Sequence record: KC710998
DNA from: Shigella phage pSf-1
DNA length: 51,821 nucleotides
Reading direction: 5' to 3' (one strand)
Shown: one piece after another, positions 6,582 through 24,973 of the stretch
Layout: the number at the start of each line of letters is the position of its first letter
Position numbering within the stretch: the stretch's first letter is position 1
Made by a program: the position numbers and the translations under genes
The notes under the pieces: model-generated
Seen by the model: only the letters and a program-made list of their open reading frames with translations
What the model was told of the DNA's origin: nothing
Database searches by the model: none

Positions 6582-6813
6582 ACAAGGTAGGCAGGCCGTA
6601 TGGGATCACGCAAAGGAGTGCGGGATCTCTGAAGACATAGCCAGGATAGCAAAATATTTTGATATTGCTGACATAAGCATTATCAGCGGCGACAAAATGA
6701 CATTTCTCAATGAACGACCGCGCAAGATGCATCGCGTACCAGCAATACCAACAAAGATTGATTTCAAAGAGGCTATGGCGAAAATTCGCGAGCCGCGCAA
6801 ATACTACAAATGA
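6571..6813 (+). CDS. hypothetical protein
   Basis: ATG 6571 with GGAGG RBS; track ORF 6523..6813. Confidence 0.45.
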   Translation: MKVEQGRQAVWDHAKECGISEDIARIAKYFDIADISIISGDKMTFLNERPRKMHRVPAIPTKIDFKEAMAKIREPRKYYK

Positions 6814-6911
6814 GGATTATTATCATGTGGCGTTTGTTACTTTTGCCCTTACCTGTTATGATGGCGACCTCTATTGTATACGTTGTCATAATGAGATAAG
6901 GAGAATTTTTG

Positions 6912-8027
6912 ATGAAGCAAATCAAAATCACAGATGAACAATTTATCAATGAGCGCAAGCAGGGAAAGACATATAAGCAAATCGCTAATGAGTATGGTAT
7001 GAACGTTCGCAGCATTGAGCGACGCGCGGCACGATTAGCAAAGCAAGGTAAAGTTACAACCATAGGATCACCTGGTTTTGGTGTTACTGGAGAATCAAAG
7101 CTAATTGATAAAGATGGCAATGTGGTTATGACATGGATTAAGACAAGTAAGGACCGCGAACAGTTAGAAGCATTAATGCAGGCCGCTATGGATGCATTTA
7201 GCGAAGAAGTTCCTCGACTTGATCCACAGCCAGAATCACAAAAGGATTATAGCGAGACGTTATCACTGTATCCGATCTTTGACATGCACTTGGGCGCAAT
7301 GGCGCATAAGCATGAATGCGGCGAGAATTGGGATACAGCAACAGCAGAGCGCGCAATGAATAATTTCATTGATTATTCCATCCAGTGCGCGCCGGATAGT
7401 GAAAAAGCTGTTTTGCTGATTGGTGGTGATATGCTTCACAGCGACGGACTGGAAGCGGTGACACCTGCAAGCGGTCACGTATTAGATCAAGATAGTCGAT
7501 ACGCAAAACTTGTTTATGTTGCCATCCGGTCAGTGCGTCGAGCAATCACAAAGCTGTTATCAAAACACAAAAACGTCGAGATTCAGATTATTGAAGGAAA
7601 CCACGACCAAAGCGGCATGATCTGGTTGCGCGCAGCAATGGCGGCAGCATATGAGAATGAGCCACGAGTGCATGTTGATGTATCTCCGCGAGTAGTTCAT
7701 CACACACAGTATGGCAAAACATTCCTGGCATATCATCACGGGCACACTATACGCAAGCCTGAAACATTACTAATGATGTGCGCGGCAGACTGGCGCGAAG
7801 ACTTCGGAAATTCAAAAATGATGTATGCTCACGTAGGGCACTGGCATCATCAGACAGTAACTGAAACAAGCCTGGGCATTGTTGAAGTGCATAGCACTAT
7901 GGCGGCAAAAGATGCATATGCTGCGCGCGGTGGATGGCGTTCTCGTCGCCGCGCGGCTGTTATTGTTTACGATAAAGAATACGGAGAAGTGGGGCGATTT
8001 ATGCATTATCCAGAAATGGCTGATTGA
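6912..8027 (+). CDS. calcineurin-like metallophosphoesterase with N-terminal HTH domain
   Basis: phosphoesterase motifs DMHLG, GGDMLHSD, EGNHD, HGH, GHWHH; N-terminal HTH-like segment; AAGGAG RBS. Confidence 0.65.
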   Translation: MKQIKITDEQFINERKQGKTYKQIANEYGMNVRSIERRAARLAKQGKVTTIGSPGFGVTGESKLIDKDGNVVMTWIKTSKDREQLEALMQAAMDAFSEEVPRLDPQPESQKDYSETLSLYPIFDMHLGAMAHKHECGENWDTATAERAMNNFIDYSIQCAPDSEKAVLLIGGDMLHSDGLEAVTPASGHVLDQDSRYAKLVYVAIRSVRRAITKLLSKHKNVEIQIIEGNHDQSGMIWLRAAMAAAYENEPRVHVDVSPRVVHHTQYGKTFLAYHHGHTIRKPETLLMMCAADWREDFGNSKMMYAHVGHWHHQTVTETSLGIVEVHSTMAAKDAYAARGGWRSRRRAAVIVYDKEYGEVGRFMHYPEMAD

Positions 8028-8070
8028 ACTTTTAATCATTAAAATATAAATATAAATCATCAATTTAATT

Positions 8071-8101
8071 GGGCGTGGCATTTTGCTTCGCCCTTTTTTT
8101 A
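8071..8101 (+). terminator. rho-independent terminator
   Basis: imperfect GC hairpin (GGGCGTGGCA...TGCTTCGCCC) followed by T7. Confidence 0.5.
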
Positions 8102-8173
8102 TTCCTTTTTGTGAGTTCAATGGTTAGGATACAAACAATTAATTGTTGACTTTTATCTACAGGAGATCTAATC

Positions 8174-8389
8174 ATGAAAGATTTTTTAAACGCCGCAACT
8201 TCCGGTACTGGCGGCGCGTCAATCACTGGCGCGGTAACTGGTCAAACAACTATCGCAATAGCCAGCTTAGTTTTGATGGCTGCATTTGGTATGTGGGGCG
8301 CTTATCTTCGTTGGCGTGATAGCAAGGCGCTACGTGACGCTCTTGAATGCGGTGATATTAAGAAAGCTATTGAGATCAGAGGTAAATAA
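8174..8389 (+). CDS. holin (small, pinholin-like)
   Basis: 71 aa, hydrophobic core, charged C-terminus, directly upstream of and overlapping endolysin start. Confidence 0.55.
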
Positions 8390-8877
8390 TGAGTATAAAA
8401 CAAAGAGTGACCGCTGCGGCTTTTGGCGTTGCTCTTGCCCTTACTTCTCCGCTACTGGAGGAAATAGAAGGAGTAAAATATAAGCCGTACAAAGATATTG
8501 CTGGGATATGGACGGTTTGCGCCGGAATAACTGGACCTGACGTAATACAAGGCAAAACGTACACACAAAGAGAGTGTGATGCACTACTGGCAAAGCATAT
8601 CAAGATCGCAAAGGATGAAGTTGATAAGAGTGTAAAGGTTGACATTCCTGATACAATGCGCGCAGCAATGTATTCATTCACATACAATGCTGGAACTGGA
8701 GCTTTTAGAAATTCAACCATGCTTAAGCTGATTAATAGAGGTCGTTACATGGAAGCGTGTAATCAGTTATGGCGATGGACCAAGTACACCAATCCAAAAA
8801 CTGGAAAGAAAGAAACGTCTAAAGGACTGCGCAACCGCCGCGCGGTGGAATTTAAATATTGCATTAAGGATCTGTAA
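8389..8877 (+). CDS. SAR endolysin (T4-lysozyme-like muramidase)
   Basis: N-terminal weakly hydrophobic Ala/Gly-rich signal-anchor-release segment; catalytic E-x8-D-x5-T triad ([16 protein letters not shown]). Confidence 0.7.
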
Positions 8878-8879
8878 TT

Positions 8880-9296
8880 ATGCGAAAGTTATCACTAATC
8901 GCGATCGCTGTTATTTTGTCTGGATGTTCAAGCGTTACGCCACTGACCGGATTAATCGGTAGTAAGCCGGAAATCACCGCGCAGGCAGGAGCGGAGAACG
9001 TAAAGCAGACCGTAGGCCTGACAGCAAAACAGGACGCAAGCAACAAGCAGGATACAACCATTAAAGATTCGAAAGTTGACACGGTTGATACTTCCAGCAA
9101 AAAGGAGATCAAAACGTCAACCATTCAGGCAAACACCATCAAGGCTGATAAAATCCAGGTTGTGCAGGGTGAGCAAAGGAAGTGGTACGATCCTATAATC
9201 TATTGCGCTGCAATTTTCAGTGGTCTTTTGACTATGCTTTACTTTTCCTACCGCAAAGACAACAAAAAGGAGCTTAACGCCTCCTTTGTTTTATAG
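8880..9296 (+). CDS. unimolecular spanin (lipoprotein with C-terminal TMD)
   Basis: N-terminal lipobox LSGC and C-terminal transmembrane helix; position after endolysin. Confidence 0.6.
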   Translation: MRKLSLIAIAVILSGCSSVTPLTGLIGSKPEITAQAGAENVKQTVGLTAKQDASNKQDTTIKDSKVDTVDTSSKKEIKTSTIQANTIKADKIQVVQGEQRKWYDPIIYCAAIFSGLLTMLYFSYRKDNKKELNASFVL

Positions 9297-9512
9297 TGAA
9301 TCCATCAAATCTTGAAAGCTGTTTCCGCTATAATCATTCTCGACAAGAATGTAAGCACCTTTCTTCTTTATATCCCATAACATTTCATTGTATTCGTAAC
9401 GATTTATTTCAAACGTGCTGCCATCTTCTCTTGTCGCAGTTCCTTTGTCGTTGAAAACATCAAAAGTTACATTGATGATTTTTGTCTCTTTCTTTGTTAC
9501 TTTGATAGCCAT
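9291..9512 (-). CDS. hypothetical protein
   Basis: ATG with AGGA RBS downstream of minus-strand promoter cassette; track ORF 9291..9578. Confidence 0.4.
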   Translation of the reverse strand: MAIKVTKKETKIINVTFDVFNDKGTATREDGSTFEINRYEYNEMLWDIKKKGAYILVENDYSGNSFQDLMDSL

Positions 9513-9543
9513 TTTTAAAATCCTCATATTCGTTTCGATGAAA

Positions 9544-9588
9544 CAAATATACCGATACGAGATCGGGAGTTTTAACAAAAAGTGCTAT
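9544..9588 (-). promoter_or_regulatory. conserved promoter cassette (minus strand)
   Basis: reverse-complement motif GTTTTAACAAAAAGTGCTAT, 17 nt spacer with CCGAT/ATCGG inverted repeat, TATATT, CATCGAAACGAA leader. Confidence 0.55.
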
Positions 9589-9705
9589 TCAATACGCTTT
9601 ACAGTAACCAACAAAACGCCGTCCTCATCACACAAATTATGCTCTGATATATCAAACGCTCGCATGTCAGAATGAATGAGCGTTAACATTGCGTGCATGA
9701 AGTCG

Positions 9706-10113
9706 TCATGTGAGATTGAACTTACGGCGCAGAACTTCAATATTTTGTCTATTAGCATTTGACGTAAACAATTCTTCATCGCTCATTTCTCCGATCCTTA
9801 AAACATCCCTTACCCATTCGTTTTGCATACCTTCCAGACTGTAAAGTTCAAACGAGAAAGGTCGATTTGCAGACCCTTTCTTACACCAGAACTTTCCACC
9901 AACTCCATCAAGATAACCAGCGGTCATCATTCTTGCGCAAAACTCTTTTGAAACGGCGGTTGCAAACATTCTCGGCGTAAATCCTGCGGCCCTTGCGAGC
10001 CGCTCACATTCTCTATGCTGAAATATAAATTTTGCGATATGTTGACGTGTAAACCATTCGAATGACTCACACCAGCGATACAGATCCAAGATAAACAAAA
10101 TGTTACCTCCCAT
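9706..10113 (-). CDS. hypothetical protein
   Basis: ORF track; downstream of HNH gene in same operon. Confidence 0.35.
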   Translation of the reverse strand: MGGNILFILDLYRWCESFEWFTRQHIAKFIFQHRECERLARAAGFTPRMFATAVSKEFCARMMTAGYLDGVGGKFWCKKGSANRPFSFELYSLEGMQNEWVRDVLRIGEMSDEELFTSNANRQNIEVLRRKFNLT

Positions 10114-10615
10114 GATTGCAGTGATATTTTAGTTCGTTTTCTTTTGATCTTCTTGCGCAAGCCGCATCAAATATAGTTTTAAAATATCCAATACAAAATG
10201 TTTTTCCTAAAACTCCTATTTGTGCATAATACAGTCCATCTTTAGTTATTGTAACCCCAGTTAATCCAGTTTTGTTTCTTTTGTTTTTTGATAAGTTTTT
10301 TTGATTATCTTTCTTTCTAACAAGTCTTAGATTTTCTATCCTGTTGTCGTCGCGAATGTGGTTAATGTGATCAATCTCATATCCTTCTAGTATAGCGCCG
10401 TTATGCATTTCCCATATTATCCGATGCGCCAAAAATCTCCTTTTATTTATGTTTAATAATATATAACCAGATTCTAAATCCTTACATCCTGCAATCTTAC
10501 CAGAATATTGAGTGTTACATTTGCTCATTATTCTTTCGCATGAGAAGTGGCTTAATGGCCTGGTGCGCCATATAAGCGCACCATTTGAATATGTAAAATA
10601 ATCATGCCAATTCAT
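10103..10615 (-). CDS. HNH homing endonuclease with AP2-like DNA-binding domain
   Basis: HNH motif EIDHINHIRDDNRIENLRLV...N; AP2-like segment GVTITKDGLYYAQIGVLGKTFCIGYF; GGGGTAA RBS. Confidence 0.65.
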   Translation of the reverse strand: MNWHDYFTYSNGALIWRTRPLSHFSCERIMSKCNTQYSGKIAGCKDLESGYILLNINKRRFLAHRIIWEMHNGAILEGYEIDHINHIRDDNRIENLRLVRKKDNQKNLSKNKRNKTGLTGVTITKDGLYYAQIGVLGKTFCIGYFKTIFDAACARRSKENELKYHCNHGR

Positions 10616-10619
10616 AAAA

Positions 10620-12203
10620 TTACCCCAGCAATGTTGGATTTACGAAAACAACGCCATTAATCACGCAAATATAGTTTCTTTCCTCAAGCATCGGAAGCAG
10701 TTGCGTTTCCATTCGCTTCATTACTCCAGCCTGACCAACAAACGGCTTAACTTTTCGTGCTGCCTCATATATAGCGCGAACATTCAATATCCCCTTATTA
10801 GCCTTGCCGTGTCGAGTAATGATCTCGATTAGTTTACCCATTTCAGCATCATCACCAGCGTAGCCAGAAGCGTTGGCGGCGCTAATGTATGTTTTGCTCA
10901 ACTCGCTAAACATCAGTAGTGCTTCCTGAACGGTTTCAACCTCAATCTCTTTCGACTTTTGAGGGTATCCGCCAGGGTTAAACCAATTGCGGATAGTGTG
11001 CAAAACCGAAGCAATCCTGATCACCTGCTTATCCATTTTTCCAAGCGCACCGCGCAGCATTGTATGCGAATACTTTCCGCCATCGGCAAGGTGCGGTTCC
11101 ATTTCCTGACGAGCCATGTTAAGAACTCGCATTGCTGATTTGCTGATCTTAAGCTGGATGTTTGATTCACTCATGATGTTATGGATCAGCTTAAAATATT
11201 GACTTTTCAGTTCTCCATCAACAGGCTCATAAGTCGAATCACCGTTATCATCAACAAACTTTCGACGACCTAAAAATGATTCCTCACGCACAAGCAAATA
11301 ACGCTCACTTACACCGATACCGCGCGATCCTGCATCCATGATGGCATTGATTGTTTCATCCTGGGCAATTACCGCCATACAGCCAAGAGCTTTAAAACTC
11401 ATATTGTTGTCAGCGTTTGCACGAGCTATAGAAACATGACCGTGATCCCATGCTTTTAATACAAGTTCGCTGTTGGTTTTACGTTCACTATTGGCATATG
11501 TCAGACCTAAAAGGCTGTTAATACTCGTTGCCTCGTCTGAAATTACAGCAAAGTTACCCTGGCGATTATTGATTCTTGCAAGTCCTTCCGGCGTGGTGTC
11601 GGACACAGGGAAAACTATGTCACACATCTTTTCCAGTTTTTCTTCCAGATCTTCTTTCTCCTGGTACAGAGATTCCATATCAGCGCCGGAGCGCTCGCTT
11701 TTCATCTCTTTTGCAAGACCTGCCAACTTTGCCTGAATCTTTTTTCTTTCCTTCTTTCGCTGATCGTTAATTCTTTCCACTTCTGCAACCATTGGAGCAA
11801 GTGCCAAGCTGTTAACGGCAGATTTACCAGTTGATGGAGGCTGGCTTGTAACAACGTACAGAGCGGTTGGTTGATCCGTTCCGTGATACTCAACAGTGAA
11901 GCGTCCAAGCATTGCAGCAGACACGCATCCGATAAAATGCATATATGCCGATGATTCAGGGAACTGAACTGATCGAGCAATGTTGCGCGCCAACTTGCCA
12001 ACAATATCAACATCATTGCCAAGAGAAATTACAGGGTAGCGATCGTTTCCGTTATTAACATCATTAACCTCACCCCAAAAGCTGGACGATTGACGGTATC
12101 CGTTTGCCTGAATGGACACGCGCACCGGAGACAATCCTTGTGCATCAGCTAATTCGATAATTTGTTTTGGTGTTAGTTTGTTGGTTTCAAACGAAAAATT
12201 CAT
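10620..12203 (-). CDS. DUF3987-like P-loop ATPase (putative replicative primase-helicase-associated protein)
   Basis: Walker A-like PPSTGKS, Walker B-like AVISDEAT; start at MNFSFETNK (ATG 12203, AAAGGAG RBS) downstream of promoter cassette. Confidence 0.5.
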   Translation of the reverse strand: MNFSFETNKLTPKQIIELADAQGLSPVRVSIQANGYRQSSSFWGEVNDVNNGNDRYPVISLGNDVDIVGKLARNIARSVQFPESSAYMHFIGCVSAAMLGRFTVEYHGTDQPTALYVVTSQPPSTGKSAVNSLALAPMVAEVERINDQRKKERKKIQAKLAGLAKEMKSERSGADMESLYQEKEDLEEKLEKMCDIVFPVSDTTPEGLARINNRQGNFAVISDEATSINSLLGLTYANSERKTNSELVLKAWDHGHVSIARANADNNMSFKALGCMAVIAQDETINAIMDAGSRGIGVSERYLLVREESFLGRRKFVDDNGDSTYEPVDGELKSQYFKLIHNIMSESNIQLKISKSAMRVLNMARQEMEPHLADGGKYSHTMLRGALGKMDKQVIRIASVLHTIRNWFNPGGYPQKSKEIEVETVQEALLMFSELSKTYISAANASGYAGDDAEMGKLIEIITRHGKANKGILNVRAIYEAARKVKPFVGQAGVMKRMETQLLPMLEERNYICVINGVVFVNPTLLG

Positions 12204-12230
12204 TGGTGATAACTCCTTTTTGATGCGGCA

Positions 12231-12274
12231 ATAATACCGCACCAATGCTACCCGCATTTAACAAAAAATGCTAT
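12231..12274 (-). promoter_or_regulatory. conserved promoter cassette (minus strand, variant ATAGCATTTTTTGTTAAATG)
   Basis: motif + 19 nt spacer + TATTAT upstream of DUF3987 gene. Confidence 0.5.
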
Positions 12275-12487
12275 TTGATCCGCTCTATGCTAACTAAGAT
12301 TTTTTCTGGTTCCTTTGCACTATGGCAATGCGCGGTTACAGAATCAACAAAATCAAAGTAAAGTGATTTGTGATATGAGAATCCAATCAGCCACCCAACC
12401 ATCGTTTTCTTTATTGGCCTGACTATATCGCATGATTGAAGGTTTTTGTTGCTGAATGAGTCACCTTATAGCGATATTCAGCCTTGA

Positions 12488-12874
12488 TCACTTATACATA
12501 GCCTCAAACAAATGACAGCCACCAGCGGAAAATCCAACTTCTTCGCGGTACAGCGTCCAGCGGTCGCCAGCTTCATCAAACACATAACCAGCAACAGCGC
12601 CAAGTGCTCGGCCTTGCTCAATCTGGTAGCGCTTTCCTTCTTTGAAATGCTTTTTACAAGGGATCTTGTGATCTACAAAGGTGCATTTAATTGTTTTTGT
12701 CTTGATATGACGATAGTCAGACTCAACAGCGTTTTGCCACTTGCTACCCTTTGTAATGCTCTTTACCTGGAATTGTTCCAACTCGATCACATCATCGCTA
12801 CCAGCGATTTTTTCGTATACAACTTTATAACGACCGTTCATCAAAACGTTGGTTTTATTGCAGATAACTTTCAT
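12488..12874 (-). CDS. hypothetical protein
   Basis: ORF track; AAGGAG RBS; downstream of promoter cassette. Confidence 0.45.
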   Translation of the reverse strand: MKVICNKTNVLMNGRYKVVYEKIAGSDDVIELEQFQVKSITKGSKWQNAVESDYRHIKTKTIKCTFVDHKIPCKKHFKEGKRYQIEQGRALGAVAGYVFDEAGDRWTLYREEVGFSAGGCHLFEAMYK

Positions 12875-12904
12875 CGTTTATTTCTCCTTTCGTTTCGGTG
12901 AAGT

Positions 12905-12949
12905 GATTATGCCAGGTTTTGCACCTGGCGTTTTAACAAAAAGTGCTAT
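12905..12949 (-). promoter_or_regulatory. conserved promoter cassette (minus strand)
   Basis: 44-nt core identical to the plus-strand cassette at 17701..17744 (includes hairpin GCCAGGTGCAAAACCTGGC). Confidence 0.55.
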
Positions 12950-13655
12950 TTTGCGTTTGCTTCAAAGACGGCGCGAGCAAAACCGCGCGGTGTGAGGGAG
13001 CGGATCATCTTTGTGCGAGATGATTTTCCGCCAGTTTTGGCCCAACCAGGATTATCCTTGTCATCCTCTTTAGGAAGGATTGTTGCGCGCGGAGGAATAA
13101 CAAATCCGTTTCCAGTCCAAAGGCATGTTTTCTTAAAGTACCGATCCCGCGCCGGAATAATATCAGGGAAGTCGGGATGCTTATCATCTTCCGGCAGATA
13201 GCAGCATAATCGCACGGATGGAACGTATAATCAGGCTTACGCCATAACGTTGACAGCTTGCCTACAGGATTTTCGATCATGTAAGGAACGCCGAAATAAT
13301 CAGCGATATGCGCCGCGATTCTGCAAGTGTCGGCGGCCTCATCCTGGAACGCTGGATTCTCAAGGCGTTTTTTGGTCCAATGGCGAGATCCGCTATTTGC
13401 AAGGTCAGTGCACGGCGGAAATGCCATAATGAAATCAGGCTTGCCCCAATTTTCAAGTTTTGCGGTATATTTGAATAGCTCATCAATCCACACATTAACG
13501 TAAAAAATATTATCATGGATTATGCGCACTGATTGGTAGTCGCCATGATCTGCATCATCGTAATTAAAGCAAATGCATTTATATCCAGCATCAGCCCAAT
13601 CTTTAACGGCTTTACCAGATCCATCAAACAAAGAGAATATTAAACCTTTATACAT
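12946..13655 (-). CDS. C5-cytosine DNA methyltransferase-like protein, apparently frameshifted
   Basis: motif I LFDGSG, motif IV FPPCTDLANSG (PC dipeptide), motif VI ENPVG; coding continues in another frame (track ORFs 13005..13655 and 12946..13215). Confidence 0.45.
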
Positions 13656-13888
13656 TTCATCACCTCAAAACGGAAAGCATCTGGGCAGTTCGGATCAAAA
13701 TTGCAACCACAATCATTAACAATCATAGTTGGATCTGCAAATGCAGCGCCGCATTCATGGTCCATATCCATTTCACCCAACGCATCATCAAGCGTCCTGA
13801 TTTTATATGCGACTTCAAGCGCGGCCTCTTTATTCAGTCCGGCATCTTCTGCTTTTTGCAGTCGCTCAAAAAAACCGTCTTGACTCAT
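13640..13888 (-). CDS. hypothetical Cys-rich protein
   Basis: ORF track; Cys-containing CGCNFDPNCPD segment; overlaps start of methyltransferase-like gene. Confidence 0.4.
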   Translation of the reverse strand: MSQDGFFERLQKAEDAGLNKEAALEVAYKIRTLDDALGEMDMDHECGAAFADPTMIVNDCGCNFDPNCPDAFRFEVMKCIKV

Positions 13889-13998
13889 TTAATAAACTCC
13901 TTAACAACAGCAAGAATAATCACAAGCCCAGCAGTAAAAACAAGCAAACCGACAAGGCCAATCATAACACTAAATAAAACATCAAGCGTCTTAATCAT
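13885..13998 (-). CDS. small hydrophobic peptide (about 37 aa)
   Basis: ATG..TGA minus-strand ORF MIKTLDVLFSVMIGLVGLLVFTAGLVIILAVVKEFIK, single predicted TM helix; stop overlaps next start (ATGA). Confidence 0.3.
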   Translation of the reverse strand: MIKTLDVLFSVMIGLVGLLVFTAGLVIILAVVKEFIK

Positions 13999-14010
13999 TT
14001 ATTCACCATT

Positions 14011-17694: not shown

Positions 17695-17700
17695 CCGGAA

Positions 17701-17745
17701 ATAGCACTTTTTGTTAAAACGCCAGGTGCAAAACCTGGCATAATA
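17701..17745 (+). promoter_or_regulatory. conserved promoter cassette
   Basis: ATAGCACTTTTTGTTAAAAC + GCCAGGTGCAAAACCTGGC hairpin + ATAATA + CATCGAAACGAG leader. Confidence 0.55.
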
Positions 17746-17776
17746 ACCTCATCGAAACGAGATTGAGGAAAACAAA

Positions 17777-17962
17777 ATGGCACGTCGCATCACCAAAGAC
17801 CTTAAAGTCCTGAACAAAGAAAACGTAGTTAAAATCCTGGTTATCTGGGGATACAACGAAGAAACAGCAAAGCAGAAGGTAGAGGCAGGTTATGACATGG
17901 CTGTAAAAGCAATGCCAAACGACGACGCCAAAGGTATTGCAAACTATGTAGCTTTCTTTTAA
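17777..17962 (+). CDS. hypothetical protein
   Basis: ORF track; GAGGAA RBS. Confidence 0.45.
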   Translation: MARRITKDLKVLNKENVVKILVIWGYNEETAKQKVEAGYDMAVKAMPNDDAKGIANYVAFF

Positions 17963-17977
17963 TTAGCAGGTGAGTAA

Positions 17978-18163
17978 ATGAAAACGAAATTAGTCCATAA
18001 ATCAGAAATCAAGATCGGCGATACTGTGATTCACAACGGTGAGCTTAGAACGGTTGGCAAAGAGTCAATAAGCCACGATGAATTTATGGGGATCTTGTTG
18101 TTCGGTGACTCTTATCGTCTTGGTTACAAGATGGTTGAGCTTGTGGAAGAGGTAAAATTCTAA
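17978..18163 (+). CDS. hypothetical protein
   Basis: ORF track; AGGTGAG RBS. Confidence 0.45.
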   Translation: MKTKLVHKSEIKIGDTVIHNGELRTVGKESISHDEFMGILLFGDSYRLGYKMVELVEEVKF

Positions 18164-18208
18164 ATAGCACTTTTTGTTAAAACTCGAAAACGATAACCAG
18201 GCATAATA
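18164..18208 (+). promoter_or_regulatory. conserved promoter cassette
   Basis: motif + 19 nt + ATAATA. Confidence 0.55.
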
Positions 18209-18261
18209 AATCACATAGGGCGGCACGGCGTCGCCCAAAAAACCAATCAGGAGAAAGCACC

Positions 18262-19155
18262 ATGTTAAAACTTGCTGACATTAAATTCCCGATCACTTTC
18301 GAATCTCGTGGCGTTGGTCATTACATTTTTACCGATGAGAAAACATGCCATAACGTTTGGTTGCACAGCGATAAGCCAAGCCCATCAACAATGGAGATTC
18401 AGCACTTCATTGATGCGCATAATCAGCACTACAACTCAATCCGTGACTACGGCTACGCAATGCCAGGCTACACATGCTTGCACTACAAGCCATATAAGGG
18501 CCAGGTGTTACCAGTGCGCTCACCGGAACGCGCAGAGATTCCGATGGTCAATATGAAAACCTGCGACTACAAAAAGCTGTGGTGCTTAAGTCTGGAAAAT
18601 ATCAAGTATCCGATCACGTTCCACACGACTGGTAAGTCAACGATTCGCTACACATCGCGCGACAATGGCGTTTATAGCGATGGTACGAAATCAGAGTTGA
18701 AAGTTGATTTCTTTGTCAATGGTCACAACAAATTCAATCCGCACAACGAAGAGGATAAAGTGTATTACGTGGAAGACATTACAAAACACTTGTTTGGAGA
18801 AACTCCATTCGGCGGCGGGAAGACGGCAATTCAGAAAATCATTGGCGAGGAGATCCATAAAGCGGCTGTCGAAATGAAAGCGCCTGGAGGCTGGCGTATT
18901 GACAAGAGCGCCTTTGCCTATCAAGAAATCGTAACGCAGGGCGCGATTGAAGATATGCCAGTTAAAGCCACGCTAAAAGGAGTCCGGCTTGATGACGGCA
19001 GTTGGTATGAATTAACGGCTACACCAAAGACGATCGAAATTCATGATGATGTTGTTATCCTTCTGCTTCACTACGGCGGCACTAAAAACCGGACTGTTGC
19101 AGGTGAGATCAGCATCAAGCGCGGAACGATGGTTAAGTGGAAGGTGAAGATTTGA
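18262..19155 (+). CDS. hypothetical protein with internal tandem duplication
   Basis: two similar segments (ADIKFPITFESRGVGHY... and ENIKYPITFHTTGKSTI...); AGGAGA RBS. Confidence 0.5.
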   Translation: MLKLADIKFPITFESRGVGHYIFTDEKTCHNVWLHSDKPSPSTMEIQHFIDAHNQHYNSIRDYGYAMPGYTCLHYKPYKGQVLPVRSPERAEIPMVNMKTCDYKKLWCLSLENIKYPITFHTTGKSTIRYTSRDNGVYSDGTKSELKVDFFVNGHNKFNPHNEEDKVYYVEDITKHLFGETPFGGGKTAIQKIIGEEIHKAAVEMKAPGGWRIDKSAFAYQEIVTQGAIEDMPVKATLKGVRLDDGSWYELTATPKTIEIHDDVVILLLHYGGTKNRTVAGEISIKRGTMVKWKVKI

Positions 19156-19231
19156 GTTTGTTCACTGCGGCGCACGTCGCCGCATGGATCGGATTGTTTG
19201 CCTACCTGTTTAGCTTTTATTGAGGTGAGAG

Positions 19232-19384
19232 ATGGCTACCTGGATTTTGCTGATTCTTATGATTGATGGCGGCGTTGACCATATCGAAATGAATAGCCAG
19301 CAATCTTGCATTGAGGCACGAGAGCAGATCAAGAACAACAACAGGTTTTATGCGTACACTCACACGCTATGTATTAAGAAATAG
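19232..19384 (+). CDS. small membrane protein (50 aa)
   Basis: MATWILLILMIDGG... hydrophobic N-terminus; GAGGTGAGAG RBS; stop TAG lies in next promoter motif. Confidence 0.35.
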   Translation: MATWILLILMIDGGVDHIEMNSQQSCIEAREQIKNNNRFYAYTHTLCIKK

Positions 19385-19423
19385 CACGAATTGTTAAAAC
19401 TCAAATGTGGGGCCAGGTATAAT
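19381..19423 (+). promoter_or_regulatory. conserved promoter cassette (variant ATAGCACGAATTGTTAAAAC + TATAAT)
   Basis: TATAAT lies in loop of GGCC...GGCC inverted repeat. Confidence 0.55.
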
Positions 19424-19453
19424 GGCCTCACTTTCAACGAAGGGGATAAAACG

Positions 19454-19684
19454 ATGTACGTTAACAAGAAGATGAAATGCGTTTCCGTTGGCTATGGTTT
19501 CACTGGCATGTTCAAGCCTGGCGAAATCTATATGGCGCAAAAGTTGAAATCATCAACCGGATCTTTTTACGTCAGCAACAGCAAAGGGCATCGCATGTTC
19601 CTGAACGGTGGTGAAGGCACTAAGGTTATGGCGCACGCTATGGTGATTGCTGAATTTGAGGAAGTGAAAGATGGAAACAAATAA
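19454..19684 (+). CDS. hypothetical protein
   Basis: ATG 19454 with AAGGGGA RBS; track ORF 19391..19684. Confidence 0.45.
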   Translation: MYVNKKMKCVSVGYGFTGMFKPGEIYMAQKLKSSTGSFYVSNSKGHRMFLNGGEGTKVMAHAMVIAEFEEVKDGNK

Positions 19685-19892
19685 GCGCGTTAAGCACAAG
19701 TTTATTGATAATCATGGCGATGCACTTGAGGTATATAAGTTCGGCGATCGCGTGTTTATTGATGGCACGTTTGAAGGTGGGCGCAGGCCGGATTTTAGAT
19801 CGATACTCACCATTGACCAGGTGCGCAAGCTGGCGGATAAGTTAAATGATCTGGCAGATGAAATCGAATACAAGCAAATTCATTTTAATTGA
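19671..19892 (+). CDS. hypothetical protein
   Basis: ORF track; GAGGAAG RBS. Confidence 0.45.
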   Translation: METNKRVKHKFIDNHGDALEVYKFGDRVFIDGTFEGGRRPDFRSILTIDQVRKLADKLNDLADEIEYKQIHFN

Positions 19893-19903
19893 TAGGTTTG
19901 ATA

Positions 19904-20443
19904 ATGAAAAAATACGAATTTGAACTTTGGGGCAGCAAATACCATTTTTCCACTAGCAAGCCGATTGTTATCGTTGACCTGGACGGAACGTTATCAGACG
20001 GAACGCATCGCTTGCACCTGCTTCCGACAGAAGATTTGCACCTTACAGAAAGCTGGGCTGAGTTCAATAAGGCGGCTGTTGGCGATTCGCCGATTAAGAG
20101 CACTGTTGCAGTGGTTAACGGTTTGTGGATGTCAGGATTTGCCATCGTTATCCTGACTGGACGCAGCGATGAAGTTGCGATGGATACATGTAAATGGATT
20201 GGCGAGAATGGCATCAAATACGACGCGTTAATCATGCGCCGCAAGGAAGACAACCGCAAAGATACGATCATCAAAGAAGAAGTATTGCGAGCTATCGGAC
20301 TGGAAAACATTGTGTGCGCCTTTGATGATTCGCCTAACGTGGTTAAGCACTTCCGCAGCCTGGGAATCACAACCTATCAGGTCACGGAATACGACAAGCC
20401 ACATAATCATATCCAATCGCATGGCGTGGAGGAATTGAAATGA
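19904..20443 (+). CDS. HAD-superfamily phosphatase (polynucleotide 3'-phosphatase-like)
   Basis: HAD motif I IVDLDGTL (DxDGT); size about 180 aa. Confidence 0.55.
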   Translation: MKKYEFELWGSKYHFSTSKPIVIVDLDGTLSDGTHRLHLLPTEDLHLTESWAEFNKAAVGDSPIKSTVAVVNGLWMSGFAIVILTGRSDEVAMDTCKWIGENGIKYDALIMRRKEDNRKDTIIKEEVLRAIGLENIVCAFDDSPNVVKHFRSLGITTYQVTEYDKPHNHIQSHGVEELK

Positions 20444-20601
20444 CCTGGTTACTTTTAATCTTTGTCACAAGTTACAACTCCGCCGCTATTGAATCGCAAG
20501 AGTTCCACGGCGAATCAAGGTGTCAGGAAGCACGAAAACAAGTTGTTCTCCACATGTCAGATAGTGGGAAAGATGTAACAGCGCTATGCGTTCGTAAGTA
20601 G
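20440..20601 (+). CDS. small protein with N-terminal hydrophobic segment (53 aa)
   Basis: ATGA overlap with phosphatase stop; stop TAG lies in next promoter motif. Confidence 0.3.
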   Translation: MTWLLLIFVTSYNSAAIESQEFHGESRCQEARKQVVLHMSDSGKDVTALCVRK

Positions 20602-20641
20602 CACTTTTTGCAAAAATAGATTGTCGGGCTTGCGGTATAGT
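20598..20641 (+). promoter_or_regulatory. conserved promoter cassette (variant GTAGCACTTTTTGCAAAAAT + TATAGT)
   Basis: TATAGT in loop of GGGCTT/AAGCCC inverted repeat; CCATCGACAACAAACGAGGA leader. Confidence 0.5.
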
Positions 20642-20672
20642 AAGCCCATCGACAACAAACGAGGATTAAATC

Positions 20673-20783
20673 ATGGCTAACAAGATCGAGTTTTTTAAAG
20701 CGGTAGACAAGATTGATGCGCGCCAAGTTTCTTTGCTATCCAGTCAATTGACGGTGAGGATATGGCATACAACGTTATCATAG
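20673..20783 (+). CDS. hypothetical small protein (36 aa; may be fused with next ORF if an indel is present)
   Basis: ATG with GAGGA RBS after cassette. Confidence 0.3.
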   Translation: MANKIEFFKAVDKIDARQVSLLSSQLTVRIWHTTLS

Positions 20784-20932
20784 AAAAGAATCGCAGCGTA
20801 AACGAGCTTATCATGCTTGTGGTTAAGTTCGGGAAATGTGGGTGGCTTGATTCTGGAGTAGAGCCGCGCCGCCGCGACATGCAAGATCCAGTTCTGCTTT
20901 ACACGCTTGTAATTGAAGGAGGCAGCAAATGA
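20762..20932 (+). CDS. hypothetical small protein (56 aa)
   Basis: ATG with GGTGAGG RBS; below track cutoff. Confidence 0.3.
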   Translation: MAYNVIIEKNRSVNELIMLVVKFGKCGWLDSGVEPRRRDMQDPVLLYTLVIEGGSK

Positions 20933-21114
20933 TTTGGTTACTTGTATTTTTAGTTGTTTTCCTTTATATTTCAGGCTTATTCATCTTCCGCGCGCTGGTG
21001 AAAACATGCGATTGCACGGATAAAGATCAGCCTCTTGTTCTGATGTTCTGGTTTGTGTGGTTTTGGGTGGCGCTTTACCAGATTGTACGGGATAAAAGCG
21101 GATTCAAGTGGTGA
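20929..21114 (+). CDS. small integral membrane protein (two predicted TM helices)
   Basis: MIWLLVFLVVFLYISGLFIF...WFVWFWVALYQIV; ATGA coupling. Confidence 0.45.
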   Translation: MIWLLVFLVVFLYISGLFIFRALVKTCDCTDKDQPLVLMFWFVWFWVALYQIVRDKSGFKW

Positions 21115-21308
21115 TTCTTACTATAGCGCATTCACGCAGTGCGCTATGTTGAGATAACAACATGAGATCATGAAGATGCGAAACTTCGAAAAAATCGTAT
21201 CCAAAAAGAAGCGATACAGCTACCACGAGCACCAAGAGATGAATCAACGCTATCGCAATAAGCGCCAGCGCAAAGGTAAACATTCCAGTAAACATGGAGA
21301 AAATCAAT

Positions 21309-21899
21309 ATGAAACGCGACATTATCATTCTTAACGGGCCGCCAGGAGTTGGCAAAGATACGCTTGCGGCATACTTAACGGGCCATCGTTACGCAGCGGT
21401 TAAAGCGTCATTTAAACAGCCTATGTTCGATATTGCATTCTCCATGCTTGGCGTTTACCGATATGACGAGTTCATTGATCTGTATAACGACCGCGAGCAG
21501 AAAGAAAAGCCTCAAGCAATCTTGCAAGGTAAGTCGCCGCGACAATTCATGATCTGGATTAGTGAAGAAGTCATGAAGCCAGCTTTTGGCAAGCAATATT
21601 TCGGAAATCGCATGGTTGAGCAAGTACACGAGATGTACAGAGATTTGGCTGTTGTAATTAGTGATGGCGGATTCCCTGAAGAAATCAAGCCGCTCGTTAA
21701 GGCAGGCCATGAGGTGCACATTTGCCGACTGCATCGCGAAGGCTTCACGTTTGATGGCGATTCACGAAACTATATTGACCTGAGCGGATACCATCACCGA
21801 GTCAATCATTACGACTTCACAATGATTGATGGCGAGCCAGAAAAGACTGTTGAAGAGATCATCAAAACGGTGCAGTGGAAACACACAAAGATTGAATAG
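21309..21899 (+). CDS. P-loop nucleotide/polynucleotide kinase
   Basis: Walker A GPPGVGKDT near N-terminus; start ATG 21309 with GGAG RBS (track ORF from 21294). Confidence 0.55.
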   Translation: MKRDIIILNGPPGVGKDTLAAYLTGHRYAAVKASFKQPMFDIAFSMLGVYRYDEFIDLYNDREQKEKPQAILQGKSPRQFMIWISEEVMKPAFGKQYFGNRMVEQVHEMYRDLAVVISDGGFPEEIKPLVKAGHEVHICRLHREGFTFDGDSRNYIDLSGYHHRVNHYDFTMIDGEPEKTVEEIIKTVQWKHTKIE

Positions 21900-21939
21900 C
21901 ACGAATTGCTAAAAGCGGGGCGCAATGCCTCGCTATAAT
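21896..21939 (+). promoter_or_regulatory. conserved promoter cassette (variant ATAGCACGAATTGCTAAAAG + TATAAT)
   Basis: TAG of kinase stop codon inside motif. Confidence 0.55.
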
Positions 21940-21969
21940 GCAAACACCAATCAACGAGAGGAAATCATC

Positions 21970-22371
21970 ATGGTAGAGTTAAACGACATTCGCGTTGGAA
22001 CAAGATTTCGCGTAACCTGGGCAGATGAAAATTGCGGCGTTAGTAAGGGGCAGGTTGTTACGGTGGATAGTATTTATCGCGGATACAGCAAAGACTTTCG
22101 CCGACCACGCATCAAGAATGGCTATATCATTACTCGACGTTTTGGCTTTGAGTGTTATTGCGTAGTGGCTACTCAAGGAGTTTTGATTGAGCTTCAGCGA
22201 ATCAGCGATCATCGCGGCTGTCATGTTAAGACAATGAAAGCACCATTTCAGCGAGCGCGATACGATGCGCGACGGATGCGCCGACTTGCTCGAAATGCGT
22301 TCAAGTTCAAAAAGCCTGGCAGTGATTTTTACGGCATGTACAAAAGGATTGCGCGAAATGCTGGGAAATAA
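21970..22371 (+). CDS. hypothetical protein (basic C-terminus)
   Basis: ATG 21970 with GAGAGG RBS; track ORF 21925..22371. Confidence 0.45.
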   Translation: MVELNDIRVGTRFRVTWADENCGVSKGQVVTVDSIYRGYSKDFRRPRIKNGYIITRRFGFECYCVVATQGVLIELQRISDHRGCHVKTMKAPFQRARYDARRMRRLARNAFKFKKPGSDFYGMYKRIARNAGK

Positions 22372-22470
22372 CAACAACGCAACCAATCCAAAGCCGCCAT
22401 TTGATTTTCATGAAATCATGATTGTGTTATTCTTGATTCTCTTAGTTGTTTATTCAGTGAGGGCCGCAAT

Positions 22471-22734
22471 ATGGTTTTTAATGCACTAAAACGAATCTTT
22501 AAACCTGAATACCGGATCGTTGCTTGCACAGAATGCAAGATTTATTATCTGCAACGCCGCCGCGTTATTAGTGGGGATTGGGAATATCTGACGGATGATG
22601 CTTTCGGATTTTGGGCTATGGAGTTCAATAGCTACAGCGAAGCGCGTGAGTACGCTAAAAAGTTGCACAAGTTCCGACCTTACAAACTGCGTTTGCTGGT
22701 TGTCAAAAAATGCGACGTGTGGGATCACGTATGA
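22471..22734 (+). CDS. hypothetical protein
   Basis: ORF track. Confidence 0.4.
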   Translation: MVFNALKRIFKPEYRIVACTECKIYYLQRRRVISGDWEYLTDDAFGFWAMEFNSYSEAREYAKKLHKFRPYKLRLLVVKKCDVWDHV

Positions 22735-22907
22735 AAAGAGTAATTATAACTTTTATTGCACTTATCGCTGGTTCTCACTTGGCTTATGGGTATAGCGGCA
22801 TTGTTGAGTCAATCGGCGGAATGATTATCTTCCTGGCTGGCGCATATTACGGCTATGGCGATGGATTTAAAAATGGCAAGCGTTACATCCTGACCGGGAA
22901 GAAATAA
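22731..22907 (+). CDS. small membrane protein (58 aa)
   Basis: MKRVIITFIALIAGSHLAYG...GMIIFLAGAYYGYG. Confidence 0.4.
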   Translation: MKRVIITFIALIAGSHLAYGYSGIVESIGGMIIFLAGAYYGYGDGFKNGKRYILTGKK

Positions 22908-22950
22908 TTTTTAACCGCGCCGCTTCGGTGGCGCTAAAAGGAGGAAACAA

Positions 22951-23238
22951 ATGGCTAAAAGCAATCGTAAAATGTTGATTAACGCATTCGAAAAGGCGGC
23001 GCTTGAGCGTGGTTGGAATGACTCATTTCACACGGCAAACTGTATCCGCCGTTACGGATTCAAGAATTGCCGCTCATGGGCGCGTGAAATGGCTTCATGG
23101 TATGATCTTGATGCGCATTACCTTGATATGGATTGCGCCCTGGTTGAAATGATTGAGCAGGCCGCATTAGAGGATCGACCATTAACGCAATCTGATTTTG
23201 ACGATTTTGTTCGCGATGAAATCTATTACATGAGCTAA
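22951..23238 (+). CDS. hypothetical protein
   Basis: AAGGAGGAAA RBS preceded by UUCG-loop hairpin. Confidence 0.45.
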   Translation: MAKSNRKMLINAFEKAALERGWNDSFHTANCIRRYGFKNCRSWAREMASWYDLDAHYLDMDCALVEMIEQAALEDRPLTQSDFDDFVRDEIYYMS

Positions 23239-23280
23239 TAGCACTTTTTGTTAAAACTTCCGCGAGGGCATTTGTTAAAG
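23238..23280 (+). promoter_or_regulatory. conserved promoter cassette (with TAAAGT -10-like)
   Basis: motif overlaps TAA stop/TAG; CATTGAAGCGAAACAGAGGA leader. Confidence 0.5.
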
Positions 23281-23313
23281 TGTCCTCATTGAAGCGAAAC
23301 AGAGGAAATCAAA

Positions 23314-23526
23314 ATGAAAATTCGAATCACCAGGGTTGACATTGACCGCAACGACGGAAGCATTACCCTTGAGCAATGCGGGTTCAAAGTTGGTGACATT
23401 GTAGAGGTTGACGGATTCTTTCGTGATGGTTCTTACTGCGTGTTAGCAATCCGCAACACGGAAGAAATTCGAATCGGTGATAACATCGGCGTAAACCATG
23501 ACGAATGCGAGGTAGTAGAGGAATGA
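23314..23526 (+). CDS. hypothetical protein
   Basis: ORF track; AGAGGAAA RBS. Confidence 0.45.
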   Translation: MKIRITRVDIDRNDGSITLEQCGFKVGDIVEVDGFFRDGSYCVLAIRNTEEIRIGDNIGVNHDECEVVEE

Positions 23527-23771
23527 TCACGATTAACCTTTCAGAAGAGCAAGCAAAGAAACTCCTGCATGCTGTAGGTTCTCGTGCACTTTGCGGATCA
23601 ACTGATGAAATGATGATTGATCATGAGGTTGCAAGAGAGCTTTTTACTCAGCTTGAGCAAAAATTCTCACCACGTCCGACCGACGCGGCAGAAACTGCAA
23701 AATGGCTTGCTGAGAATGGATACACGGCTTTAAAAGTTCACAACTGGAAGCGAAAAAACGAAGCGTTGTAG
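23523..23771 (+). CDS. hypothetical protein
   Basis: ATG 23523 with GAGGAATG; track ORF 23505..23771. Confidence 0.4.
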   Translation: MITINLSEEQAKKLLHAVGSRALCGSTDEMMIDHEVARELFTQLEQKFSPRPTDAAETAKWLAENGYTALKVHNWKRKNEAL

Positions 23772-23856
23772 AATGCTGGATTTTAATTAAAACTGAATGC
23801 CTAATACAGCGAACAGGACGCATTTTGACGAGGCATTTTTTATGTAAGGTGATTCA

Positions 23857-23985
23857 ATGGATAACTACATAAAACCGTCGCAGTGGTGCGCAAAGAAGCA
23901 AGAGGAAGCATTAGAGCGTGGCGACACTGAAACAGCAATGCACTATTTCGAAATGTACAACTTGTGGAAGGGTAGAGGTCTGTAA
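23857..23985 (+). CDS. hypothetical small protein (42 aa)
   Basis: AGGTGA RBS; MDNYIKPSQWCAKKQEEALERGDTETAMHYFEMYNLWKGRGL. Confidence 0.3.
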   Translation: MDNYIKPSQWCAKKQEEALERGDTETAMHYFEMYNLWKGRGL

Positions 23986-24215
23986 TGTTTGGAATGAGCG
24001 AGGCACAATTCAACGCTGCAAAACGCCAGGCTAAGAAGTGCGGCGAGGCAATGAAGGCTGATGTTGAAAAGCGCGGGAAGTATGTTGATGAAGTTATGAA
24101 GGGCATTATTGCCGAACATTATCAGCCAGTTGCGCCAATGCTGACAATTACCCAATTCATCTGGTTGTGTGGTTATCTTCGTGGTAGATGGGGAAGCGCA
24201 TTTGACCGCGAATGA
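23985..24215 (+). CDS. hypothetical protein
   Basis: ORF track; ATGTTTGG overlapping previous stop. Confidence 0.4.
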   Translation: MFGMSEAQFNAAKRQAKKCGEAMKADVEKRGKYVDEVMKGIIAEHYQPVAPMLTITQFIWLCGYLRGRWGSAFDRE

Positions 24216-24244
24216 TTGACAACGATTTCCTGATTGGTTAGCAT
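24216..24244 (+). promoter_or_regulatory. sigma70-type promoter (TTGACA-17 nt-TAGCAT)
   Basis: perfect -35 hexamer, 17-bp spacer, 4/6 match -10; followed by about 110 nt structured leader. Confidence 0.45.
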
Positions 24245-24361
24245 ATTCAGCGTTTACATAAGAGCGGCATTAGTGCCGAACGGGTGGCGCGGTTGCCACG
24301 AAACAACGGCGATATGCAGGTTTTTACCGTAAGACGTATTGCCTTTTTTATAGGTGTATAT

Positions 24362-24595
24362 ATGGAAAAGTACAAATTAACTTTCATGTTTAATAACATG
24401 GTGATGAATCCCTTAAATGGTTACGCTTGCAATAGCTTTTCTGTTACCGTGAATGCGGATGAAATTGAGGATGATGGTAAATTTATCCTAATAGGTGATT
24501 ACATTTATCCTATTCACAATATCAATTGCATCAAACGCGAGATCGTAAAAGATGAAATACAAGGTAAGGTTGACGATCAGGCGAATGGGGCGTAA
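24362..24595 (+). CDS. hypothetical protein
   Basis: ATG 24362 with AGGTG RBS; track ORF 24284..24595. Confidence 0.4.
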   Translation: MEKYKLTFMFNNMVMNPLNGYACNSFSVTVNADEIEDDGKFILIGDYIYPIHNINCIKREIVKDEIQGKVDDQANGA

Positions 24596-24737
24596 TTGCT
24601 CGTCATGTAGACAGAGTTTTGAATGTGAGGTTGAGGCGCGCGGAGAGCTTGAGGCGGCAGCAAGAGCAAAAGAGTTGTCCGGCGCTAATCAAGACACTCA
24701 CCAGTTTTCAATAGATCTTGTAAGGAAAATATCATGA
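24552..24737 (+). CDS. hypothetical Cys-containing protein
   Basis: ORF track; overlaps previous ORF, start uncertain. Confidence 0.3.
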   Translation: MKYKVRLTIRRMGRNCSSCRQSFECEVEARGELEAAARAKELSGANQDTHQFSIDLVRKIS

Positions 24738-24973
24738 GTTCTGTAATTATTGGTTTGGTTGCTTTAATCATTGGTGTTCTAATCGGCTTTGTCGCTGTAT
24801 CTTTCGTTGTGGCTGTTGGTGTTCGCTATAAGTCAAAAAAAGGTGAATTTGCTTTAGCGTTTTGGGATGAAGAGCAGAAAGTTTGGCAGGTTCGCGGTCA
24901 CTATTTATCAATCGGTGGCAGGATTCACAGCACTATGAAAACAAATCCAGAAAAAGTAAAATACAAGTATTGA
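24734..24973 (+). CDS. small membrane protein
   Basis: N-terminal TM helix VIIGLVALIIGVLIGFVAVSFVVAVGV; AAGGA RBS. Confidence 0.45.
   Translation: MSSVIIGLVALIIGVLIGFVAVSFVVAVGVRYKSKKGEFALAFWDEEQKVWQVRGHYLSIGGRIHSTMKTNPEKVKYKY

Follow-up and report, generated by a model that had tools for sequence, protein, structure and literature searches.

Six short open reading frames (ORFs) of Shigella phage pSf-1 (KC710998; 51,821 nucleotides (nt), the whole stretch being called the window below) had been proposed, in a sequence-only reading, to encode membrane peptides with a single hydrophobic helix. Our comparison with related genomes indicates that these ORFs are probably genuine, translated genes of a virulent T1-like coliphage, and that they form a mixed set rather than one system. 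In five of the six, and in a further ORF termed X43, one or two hydrophobic segments reach a membrane-spanning length. The ORFs under study are listed below; the six proposed ones (O1–O6) were all confirmed at their original coordinates and with their original translations.

O1: 6810–6899, plus strand; conserved transmembrane micropeptide gene, 29 amino acids (aa) from 6810 or 24 aa from 6825
O2: 13885–13998, minus strand; single-pass membrane protein gene, 37 aa, between the homologues of T1 gp5 and gp6, with an ATGA overlap with the downstream gene
O3: 19232–19384, plus strand; 50 aa, T1 gp69 family (phrog_5579, E = 9.8e-23)
O4: 20929–21114, plus strand; 61 aa, two transmembrane segments (phrog_9755, E = 1e-28, residues 1–61 on profile positions 2–61)
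O5: 22731–22907, plus strand; 58 aa, two moderately hydrophobic Gly-rich segments and basic ends, with an ATGA overlap with the upstream gene
O6: 24734–24973, plus strand; 79 aa, N-terminal transmembrane helix and basic C-terminal domain (Pfam DUF7299, PF23973; phrog_5976)
O7: 20440–20601, plus strand; 53 aa, paralogue of O3 absent from the earlier list (phrog_5579, E = 3.1e-9), with an ATGA overlap with the polynucleotide kinase gene
X43: 22358–22489, plus strand; 43 aa, C-terminal transmembrane segment (MLGNNNNATNPKPPFDFHEIMIVLFLILLVVYSVRAAIWFLMH), with overlaps of a few codons with both neighbours

Coding evidence

Between positions 6001 and 25500, we counted 19 ATG-initiated ORFs of 24–80 aa with a transmembrane-like window; 200 Markov simulations of the same region gave 9.0 ± 3.0, and never more than 17. 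In a survey of 79 hydrophobic ORFs, the majority turned out to be out-of-frame or antisense shadows of real genes, which acquired stops in relatives or showed a ratio of nonsynonymous to synonymous changes (pN/pS) above 1 in their own frame. Hydrophobicity alone is therefore no evidence for a gene. As judged from the alignments, it is conservation and coding signal, not hydrophobicity, that set the six apart from spurious ORFs.

Orthologues of the six were present in 15 fetched loci. Each ORF overlaps any larger gene by at most 4 nt and lies on the transcribed strand of its own block, and in relatives at 35–60% amino-acid identity each remains open with its length unchanged, while the other frames gain stops. 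The following pN/pS values were obtained, the mirrored antisense frame being low too, as expected:

O1: 0.42 in frame; 0.70 and 1.64 in the other forward frames
O2: 0.62 in frame; 0.58–1.05 in the other frames
O3: 0.19 in frame, with few changes; other frames not informative
O4: 0.27 in frame; about 0.9–2 in the others, 0.55 in the mirrored antisense frame
O5: 0.44 in frame; about 1.1–1.5 in the others, 0.50 in the mirrored antisense frame
O6: 0.13 in frame; about 3–7 in the others, 0.10 in the mirrored antisense frame
O7: 0.20 in frame; about 1–1.7 in the others, 0.34 in the mirrored antisense frame

Strong Shine–Dalgarno (SD) sequences precede O3 (GAGGTGA), O4 (AAGGAGG) and O7 (GGAGGA), with GGTGA ahead of O2 and TAAGGA ahead of O6. 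ATGA stop–start overlaps join O5 to its upstream gene and O2 to its downstream gene, and O6 has an ATGA overlap as well. A lack of conservation and of translation signals had been named beforehand as the outcome that would speak against these ORFs; the opposite was found, in that all six ORFs are conserved and most have an SD sequence or an ATGA overlap. For O5, the conserved and annotated start is the ATG at 22731, although this lies inside the mechanical ORF 22710–22907.

In relatives, O3, O4, O5 and O6 carry the annotation "hypothetical protein". Within a collection of 50,697 phage records, O2 was found in 61, O4 in 127 (down to 34% identity), O5 in 113 and O6, by its C-terminal domain, in 145. 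T1-like phages of enterobacteria account for almost all of these, apart from Campylobacter-labelled records and one labelled Streptococcus. The "Campylobacter phage" records (about 20; host C. jejuni; MG0656xx) carry O2, O5 and O6 and are about 90–92% identical to pSf-1, which suggests contamination by T1-like coliphages or mislabelling of the records.

Hydrophobic segments

One apolar run each was found in O1 (20 residues, Kyte–Doolittle score KD19 2.34), O2 (26 residues, KD19 2.84) and O6 (30 residues, KD19 3.16), and for these three the proposed single helix held. O4 has two apolar segments, of 20 and 16 residues, and O5 two weaker, Gly-rich ones (KD19 1.53) together with basic ends, so that neither fits a single-helix description. 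In O3 and O7, the longest apolar runs are of 11 and 12 residues (KD19 1.22 and 1.05, respectively). Accordingly, the idea that the ORFs are small membrane-protein genes and not noise survived for five of the six, O3 belonging instead to a family of predicted soluble alpha/beta miniproteins.

A micropeptide gene upstream of the exonuclease gene

O1 occupies the 95 nt that separate the upstream gene from the gene for an Mre11/SbcD-like phosphoesterase (6912–8027, plus strand; annotated in relatives as "DNA repair exonuclease", homologue of T1 gp16), which lies directly 3' of it. Because a GAGGA motif is found 8 nt 5' of the ATG at 6825 and the first ATG (6810) is missing from many relatives, the product is probably the 24-residue peptide MWRLLLLPLPVMMATSIVYVVIMR, started at 6825. 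The TAA stop of O1 abuts the SD sequence of the exonuclease gene, 9 nt ahead of a TTG at 6909; the annotated ATG, at 6912, follows 12 nt after the stop.

To survey the family, 80 IMG/VR loci were fetched with the exonuclease as query, of which 43 were T1-like. A hydrophobic ORF of 21–31 codons, ending 1–27 nt 5' of the exonuclease start, was present in 40 of these 43, while the chance of such an ORF ending 0–30 nt before a position is 0.3% (0.003 per position). The three exceptions were a divergent copy (locus L027), a copy with a nonsense codon (TAA at codon 3; L046) and a frameshifted one (L051). The ORF was absent from the other 37 loci, an mEp021-like group with an exonuclease about 65% identical; the sole member checked against named phages (L053) matched mEp013/mEp021-like temperate phages. 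It was likewise absent from Dhillonvirus EP23 and from Guernseyvirinae, which bear the exonuclease and lie outside Drexlerviridae.

T1 itself carries a 23-codon homologue, MKLYFAVVLTPLISFSVMYFIIM, unannotated in the 78 nt that separate gp17 from gp16 (E = 1.2e-10 with the O1 profile), and Rtp carries another unannotated one, MKSLILVALVQLFSFTILYFMVMN. Further unannotated homologues occur in Veterinaerplatzvirus, Webervirus and Eclunavirus. In TLS, an unannotated homologue (40083–40163) is kept 476 nt upstream of the exonuclease gene, with a homing (HNH) endonuclease gene in between. As a side observation, the annotated start of TLS endY (NC_009540, 39965–40636) crosses the conserved micro-ORF and makes the gene run into gp64; this start is probably over-extended.

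Even among close relatives O1 is unannotated (herni, KarlJaspers, phiE31-2 and BEC3), annotation being confined to PHANOTATE-called records such as ON716454, ON528718, OY978835 and PP925846. The micro-ORF is not mentioned in the KanT1 paper (PMC13164509). On the basis of these comparisons, O1 is a predicted hydrophobic micropeptide found in every Drexlerviridae lineage sampled and overlooked in the reference annotations of T1, TLS and Rtp.

The 28 distinct variants of O1 were aligned on an invariant Tyr. A Met lies 18 residues before this Tyr in 26 of the 28 and another at Tyr+4 in 26 of the 28; Ala, Gly or Ser occupies Tyr−5 in every variant, and a Pro is found at Tyr−9 or Tyr−8 in nearly all. 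The peptide of the window, MWRLLLLPLPVMMATSIVYVVIMR, agrees with this pattern at every position. We delimit the family as hydrophobic ORFs of 21–31 aa that end at most 30 nt upstream of a Drexlerviridae exonuclease gene and show the Tyr, the start Met 18 residues before it and the small residue at Tyr−5, usually along with the Pro and the Met at Tyr+4. Both TAC and TAT are used for the invariant Tyr, and all four codons for the conserved Pro; counted by codon position, changes number 43 at third positions, versus 27 and 19 at the other two. The family has no match in PHROGs, Pfam or NCBIfam.

An RNA element in place of O1 was considered and rejected: the hairpin of the region has a z-score of −0.92, zero base pairs are conserved across 13 variants, and Rfam gave no family in the window.

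A reading to which we give a low likelihood is that O1 is a leader or coupling ORF, whose peptide is inert and whose translation carries ribosomes to the exonuclease start or opens the SD sequence. The stop of O1 does lie 1–27 nt from that start in almost all loci, often overlapping the SD sequence, and the hairpin in the window allows CCUUA to pair with UAAGG in the exonuclease SD; in T1 and Rtp, moreover, the ATG of O1 overlaps the stop of the upstream gene, as in chain coupling. However, the length, the hydrophobicity, the Tyr, the Met-to-Tyr spacing and the small residue at Tyr−5 are all kept though synonymous sites are nearly saturated, and a pure coupling ORF needs none of these. Neither is any structure conserved across the 13 variants, and in TLS O1 remains intact despite the 476 nt and the homing endonuclease gene that separate it from the exonuclease.

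O3 and O7, a family of predicted soluble miniproteins

T1 gp69 matches phrog_5579 (E = 1.6e-26), as do O3 and O7. When 1.84 billion representative proteins were searched with a profile, 67 O3/O7 clusters were returned, of 47–126 residues, nearly all shorter than 70, and a word-indexed homologue search gave only 2 clusters for O7, all of them close relatives. The 33 aligned members (47–68 residues) share the pattern M-x-T-W-I-L-I-I ... E-F ... C ... C-V-x-K, with C28, A31 and C50 (hence two Cys) invariant. In Pfam, the 33-member alignment had no match. The distribution of the two genes in relatives is mosaic, one, the other or both being carried.

When O7 was modelled by AlphaFold2 from the 33-sequence alignment, the predicted local distance difference test (pLDDT) score was 92.7 and the predicted template-modelling (pTM) score 0.72. 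The model has strands at residues 2–10, 15–23 and 45–52 and a helix at 25–42, the hydrophobic stretch being placed in the core as beta strand 2–10 (pLDDT 94). According to this model, O3 and O7 are probably soluble beta-beta-alpha-beta miniproteins. We rejected their assignment as integral membrane proteins, for which apolar runs of 11 and 12 residues fall short of the roughly 18 needed. We also rejected the hydrophobic stretch as a Sec signal peptide: no Lys or Arg precedes the core, and many relatives have Glu or Asp there (METW, MEVW, MDKMSTW).

O2, O4, O5, O6 and X43

The homologues of gp5 and gp6 flank O2 in pSf-1 and are adjacent in T1, which lacks O2 and has the two genes 3 nt apart; by this comparison, O2 is a lineage-specific insertion. 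Of all frames, only that of O2 stays open in every one of the 12 orthologues, which reach down to 49% identity and keep the length, the ribosome-binding site (GGTGA or GAGGTG) and the ATGA overlap. The gene is annotated in KarlJaspers, BEC3 and JLBYU26.

O4 shows no stops in 12 orthologues. For O5, which has no PHROG or Pfam family, a search of 5.8 billion proteins gave 17 clusters, all of them close relatives; their contigs do not exceed about 53 kb, and the named ones are T1-like phages. Some O5 orthologues have a lipobox-like IAGC, and several others, like that of the window, have IAGS; a lipoprotein nature of O5 (one source names a Cys-containing relative "Lipoprotein") was rejected, the lipobox Cys not being conserved.

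O6 scores 93.9 bits on DUF7299 (cutoff 27) and matches phrog_5976 at E = 3.7e-6; T1 gp55 matches the same family at E = 8.3e-32. O6 follows the homologue of T1 gp56, as gp55 does in T1, and both O6 and gp55 are the last gene before a terminator and the small terminase gene. A word-indexed homologue search gave only 3 clusters for O6, all close relatives. Its AlphaFold2 model, from a shallow alignment, has a pLDDT of 62 and is confident for the transmembrane helix only. In Shigella phage 2019SD1 (locus L014, marked UNVERIFIED), O5 and O6 are both frameshifted, probably through assembly errors.

X43, which the sequence-only reading had missed, has conserved counterparts in 13 loci, and the changes seen in a Warwickvirus relative are conservative hydrophobic ones. 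In the part that does not overlap its neighbours, pN/pS is 0.49, versus 0.80 and 1.44 in the other frames. An AAAGGA motif lies 9 nt before the ATG, and the gene is annotated in only some relatives, for instance KarlJaspers (bas06_0078). Its likeness to T1 gp67, noticed by eye, corresponds to a BLASTP E of 0.084 over 9 residues, and homology is not claimed.

Genomic context

From the ORF map over the whole 51.8 kb, KC710998 is a complete T1-like genome. Region 6000–25500 matched 449 phage records, the closest ones being Hanrivervirus (Drexlerviridae, Tempevirinae) at about 94% identity, among them herni, KarlJaspers and phiE31-2. On sequence grounds, the phage is thus classed as a Hanrivervirus-like member of Drexlerviridae, i.e., a virulent T1-like coliphage. 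Gene order around the small ORFs is as in T1, and homologues of the exonuclease occur in 1828 phage records. Further features of the window are as follows:

Gene order around O1: Dam methylase, three small genes, phosphoesterase, holin, endolysin, unimolecular spanin (u-spanin)
8174–8389, plus strand: holin (phrog_2877, E = 1.4e-35)
8389–8877, plus strand: endolysin (annotation in relatives)
8880–9296, plus strand: u-spanin (phrog_1804)
16371 down to 9291, minus strand: leftward gene block, containing a helicase and a Dcm methylase
16915–16943, plus strand: sigma-70-like promoter TTGACA-17-GATAAT (consensus match only), heading the rightward block
16975–24973, plus strand: rightward block of small genes with O3, O7, O4, X43, O5 and O6; terminase genes come next
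24980–24997, plus strand: intrinsic-terminator-like hairpin, directly 3' of O6

The lysis cassette (8174–9296) comprises the small membrane proteins of known function in this phage. The promoter-like site had the top score in the scan (11 of 12 matches), and the hairpin occupies a position equivalent to that of the annotated T1 terminator after gp55. That the regions with the small ORFs are "early" is a prediction from gene order and the sigma-70-like promoter.

A separate observation concerns the divergent promoter region (16372–16975), where a conserved hydrophobic frame with a TTG start, MIKIDQTQSLTIQVIANELFLLFLINGIVGIIAS, lies at 16385–16489 on the minus strand; relatives annotate this frame inside longer ORFs of differing length (herni_31, bas06_0064).

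Possible roles

The products of O1, O2, O4, O5 and O6 would insert into the inner membrane of the infected host and act there by binding or perturbing membrane-embedded targets. By the positive-inside rule, O6 would adopt an N-out/C-in topology, given the basic RYKSKK after its helix, and O5 would be an N-in/C-in hairpin, being basic at both ends.

O1 and O6 are family-wide, are present in T1 and occupy fixed positions before the exonuclease gene and the terminase genes, respectively; because of this breadth and fixed placement, they probably take part in the phage's own programme. The range of O2, O4, O5 and X43 is limited to Hanrivervirus/Warwickvirus-type lineages. T1 lacks O2, has no ORF matching O4 or O5, and holds other small hydrophobic genes in the block (gp73, gp72 and gp67). 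Such lineage variability suggests accessory genes, of the kind expected for host interaction or exclusion. Tentatively, the membrane-spanning members may be inner-membrane factors that control membrane crossing or occupancy after infection, either by blocking the entry of superinfecting DNA or by neutralizing a host membrane protein; we regard this as possible.

For O1, a more specific form of the proposal can be drawn by analogy. The peptide would be made together with the exonuclease and be its partner on the membrane side, or an Imm-like entry blocker. Proteins of the T4 Imm type (Pfam PF14373, Imm_superinfect) are small, lie in the inner membrane and are encoded by virulent phages. In Kagunavirus K1ind1 (locus L116, 31–222) and Jerseyvirus S102 (locus L117, 7–186), a protein of 59–63 residues is encoded directly upstream of the homologous exonuclease; K1ind1 ORF20 and S102 orf25 score 50.4 and 56.7 bits on Imm_superinfect (cutoff 27.9) and belong to phrog_1039, "immunity to superinfection". 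This arrangement in Guernseyvirinae suggests, by analogy, that the T1-type exonuclease has been paired with small membrane proteins repeatedly. O1 and the adjacent Mre11-like exonuclease might then be a two-part device at the membrane, which blocks or processes incoming DNA (superinfection control) or tethers the nuclease, O1 filling the slot of the Imm-like proteins; we consider this doubtful. O1 differs from the Imm_superinfect proteins in having 24 aa and one segment, against about 60 aa and two segments. None of nine window proteins matched Imm_superinfect, while K1ind1 and S102, used as positive controls, did. As for exclusion lipoproteins of the Cor/Llp type, only the spanin touches phrog_1119, and the lipobox Cys of O5 is not conserved.

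Several points weigh against regarding the ORFs as genes for membrane proteins active during infection. The transmembrane calls come from Kyte–Doolittle and Hessa sums, not from a trained predictor, and the call for O5 is borderline. The pN/pS of O2 does not discriminate its frame from the others. The broken copies of O1 in L046 and L051 mean either that these records carry sequencing errors or that the peptide is dispensable in some backgrounds, hence not strictly essential; the same applies to O5, which is truncated in BEC3 and frameshifted in 2019SD1. In PHROGs, Pfam and NCBIfam, no ORF matched an exclusion, holin, toxin or defence family (PADLOC was not scanned), and the NCBIfam scan returned nothing useful. 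Lastly, the resemblance of the O1 slot to that of Imm is an analogy of position, with no shared sequence.

It is quite unlikely that the ORFs encode host-takeover toxins, i.e., short hydrophobic peptides that depolarize or permeabilize the inner membrane like the type I toxins Ibs and TisB. Small bacterial membrane proteins such as KdpF, AcrZ, MgtS, PmrR, IbsC and TisB have 19–49 aa and a single hydrophobic helix, and are often omitted from annotation; these small regulators and type I toxins act by binding larger membrane proteins or by disturbing the bilayer. In size and composition, O1 (24 aa) and O2 (37 aa) lie within the range of type I toxins, and Keweloh and Bakker are said to have described, in 1984, ion leakage and depolarization early in T1 infection. 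Depolarization at infection is, however, usually ascribed to DNA entry. The ORFs are phage-encoded and show no homology to the bacterial regulators or sequence relation to any toxin family, and neither an antisense RNA nor any other control element turned up, Rfam being empty for the window.

An improbable alternative is a function in lysis timing, with the ORFs encoding antiholins or holin modulators that act on the system of pinholin and signal-anchor-release endolysin. In its favour, O4 and O5 resemble class II holins and pinholins (phage 21 S68, T1 gp13) in being small two-segment hairpin proteins with charged ends, O5 having the generic holin build of two hydrophobic segments and a basic C-terminus. 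O1, for its part, heads a module of exonuclease, holin, endolysin and spanin that is present in 508 of 522 Drexlerviridae (PMC13164509). In T1, however, an annotated terminator lies between the exonuclease and the lysis genes, and O2, O4, O5 and O6 are 5–16 kb from the cassette in other transcription blocks, so that a lysis-regulator role for the distant ORFs is unlikely. O4 and O5 are, unlike holins, outside the lysis cassette, the holin of the phage being the product of 8174–8389; none of O1–O6, all located outside the cassette, matched a holin or antiholin PHROG, whereas the true holin did (E = 1.4e-35).

Finally, it is very improbable that chance frames in T-rich DNA account for some or all of the set, with neighbouring genes or regulatory DNA as the cause of their conservation: several hydrophobic ORFs are indeed expected by chance, most of the 19 in the region are spurious, several curated annotations lack O1 and O2, and pN/pS is uninformative for O2, but the small overlaps, the transcribed strand, the preserved length at 35–60% identity while other frames fill with stops, and the occurrence of O1 in 40 of 43 loci all speak against it.

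Biological meaning

About half of the T1 proteins, mostly from small ORFs, are without determined function (PMC13164509). Literature searches on small membrane proteins of Drexlerviridae, on DUF7299 and on T1 early genes or membrane potential turned up nothing about the ORFs discussed here. Part of the set was already known at the level of families, O3, O4 and O6 being included in phrog_5579, phrog_9755 and phrog_5976/DUF7299, respectively, and small phage membrane proteins of unassigned function are commonplace. What is new is the family-wide micropeptide upstream of the exonuclease gene, the soluble fold predicted for O3 and O7, and X43.

The tiny hydrophobic ORFs that are under selection have now been picked out in a T1-like genome, and two genes that most annotations miss have been added. 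At 24 residues, O1 is short enough to synthesize and easily mutated, which makes it a cheap target for studying how a virulent siphophage uses a membrane micropeptide. T1-like phages are common both as therapeutic and as contaminant phages; if the accessory membrane proteins are truly exclusion or anti-defence factors, they would be relevant to the design of phage cocktails.

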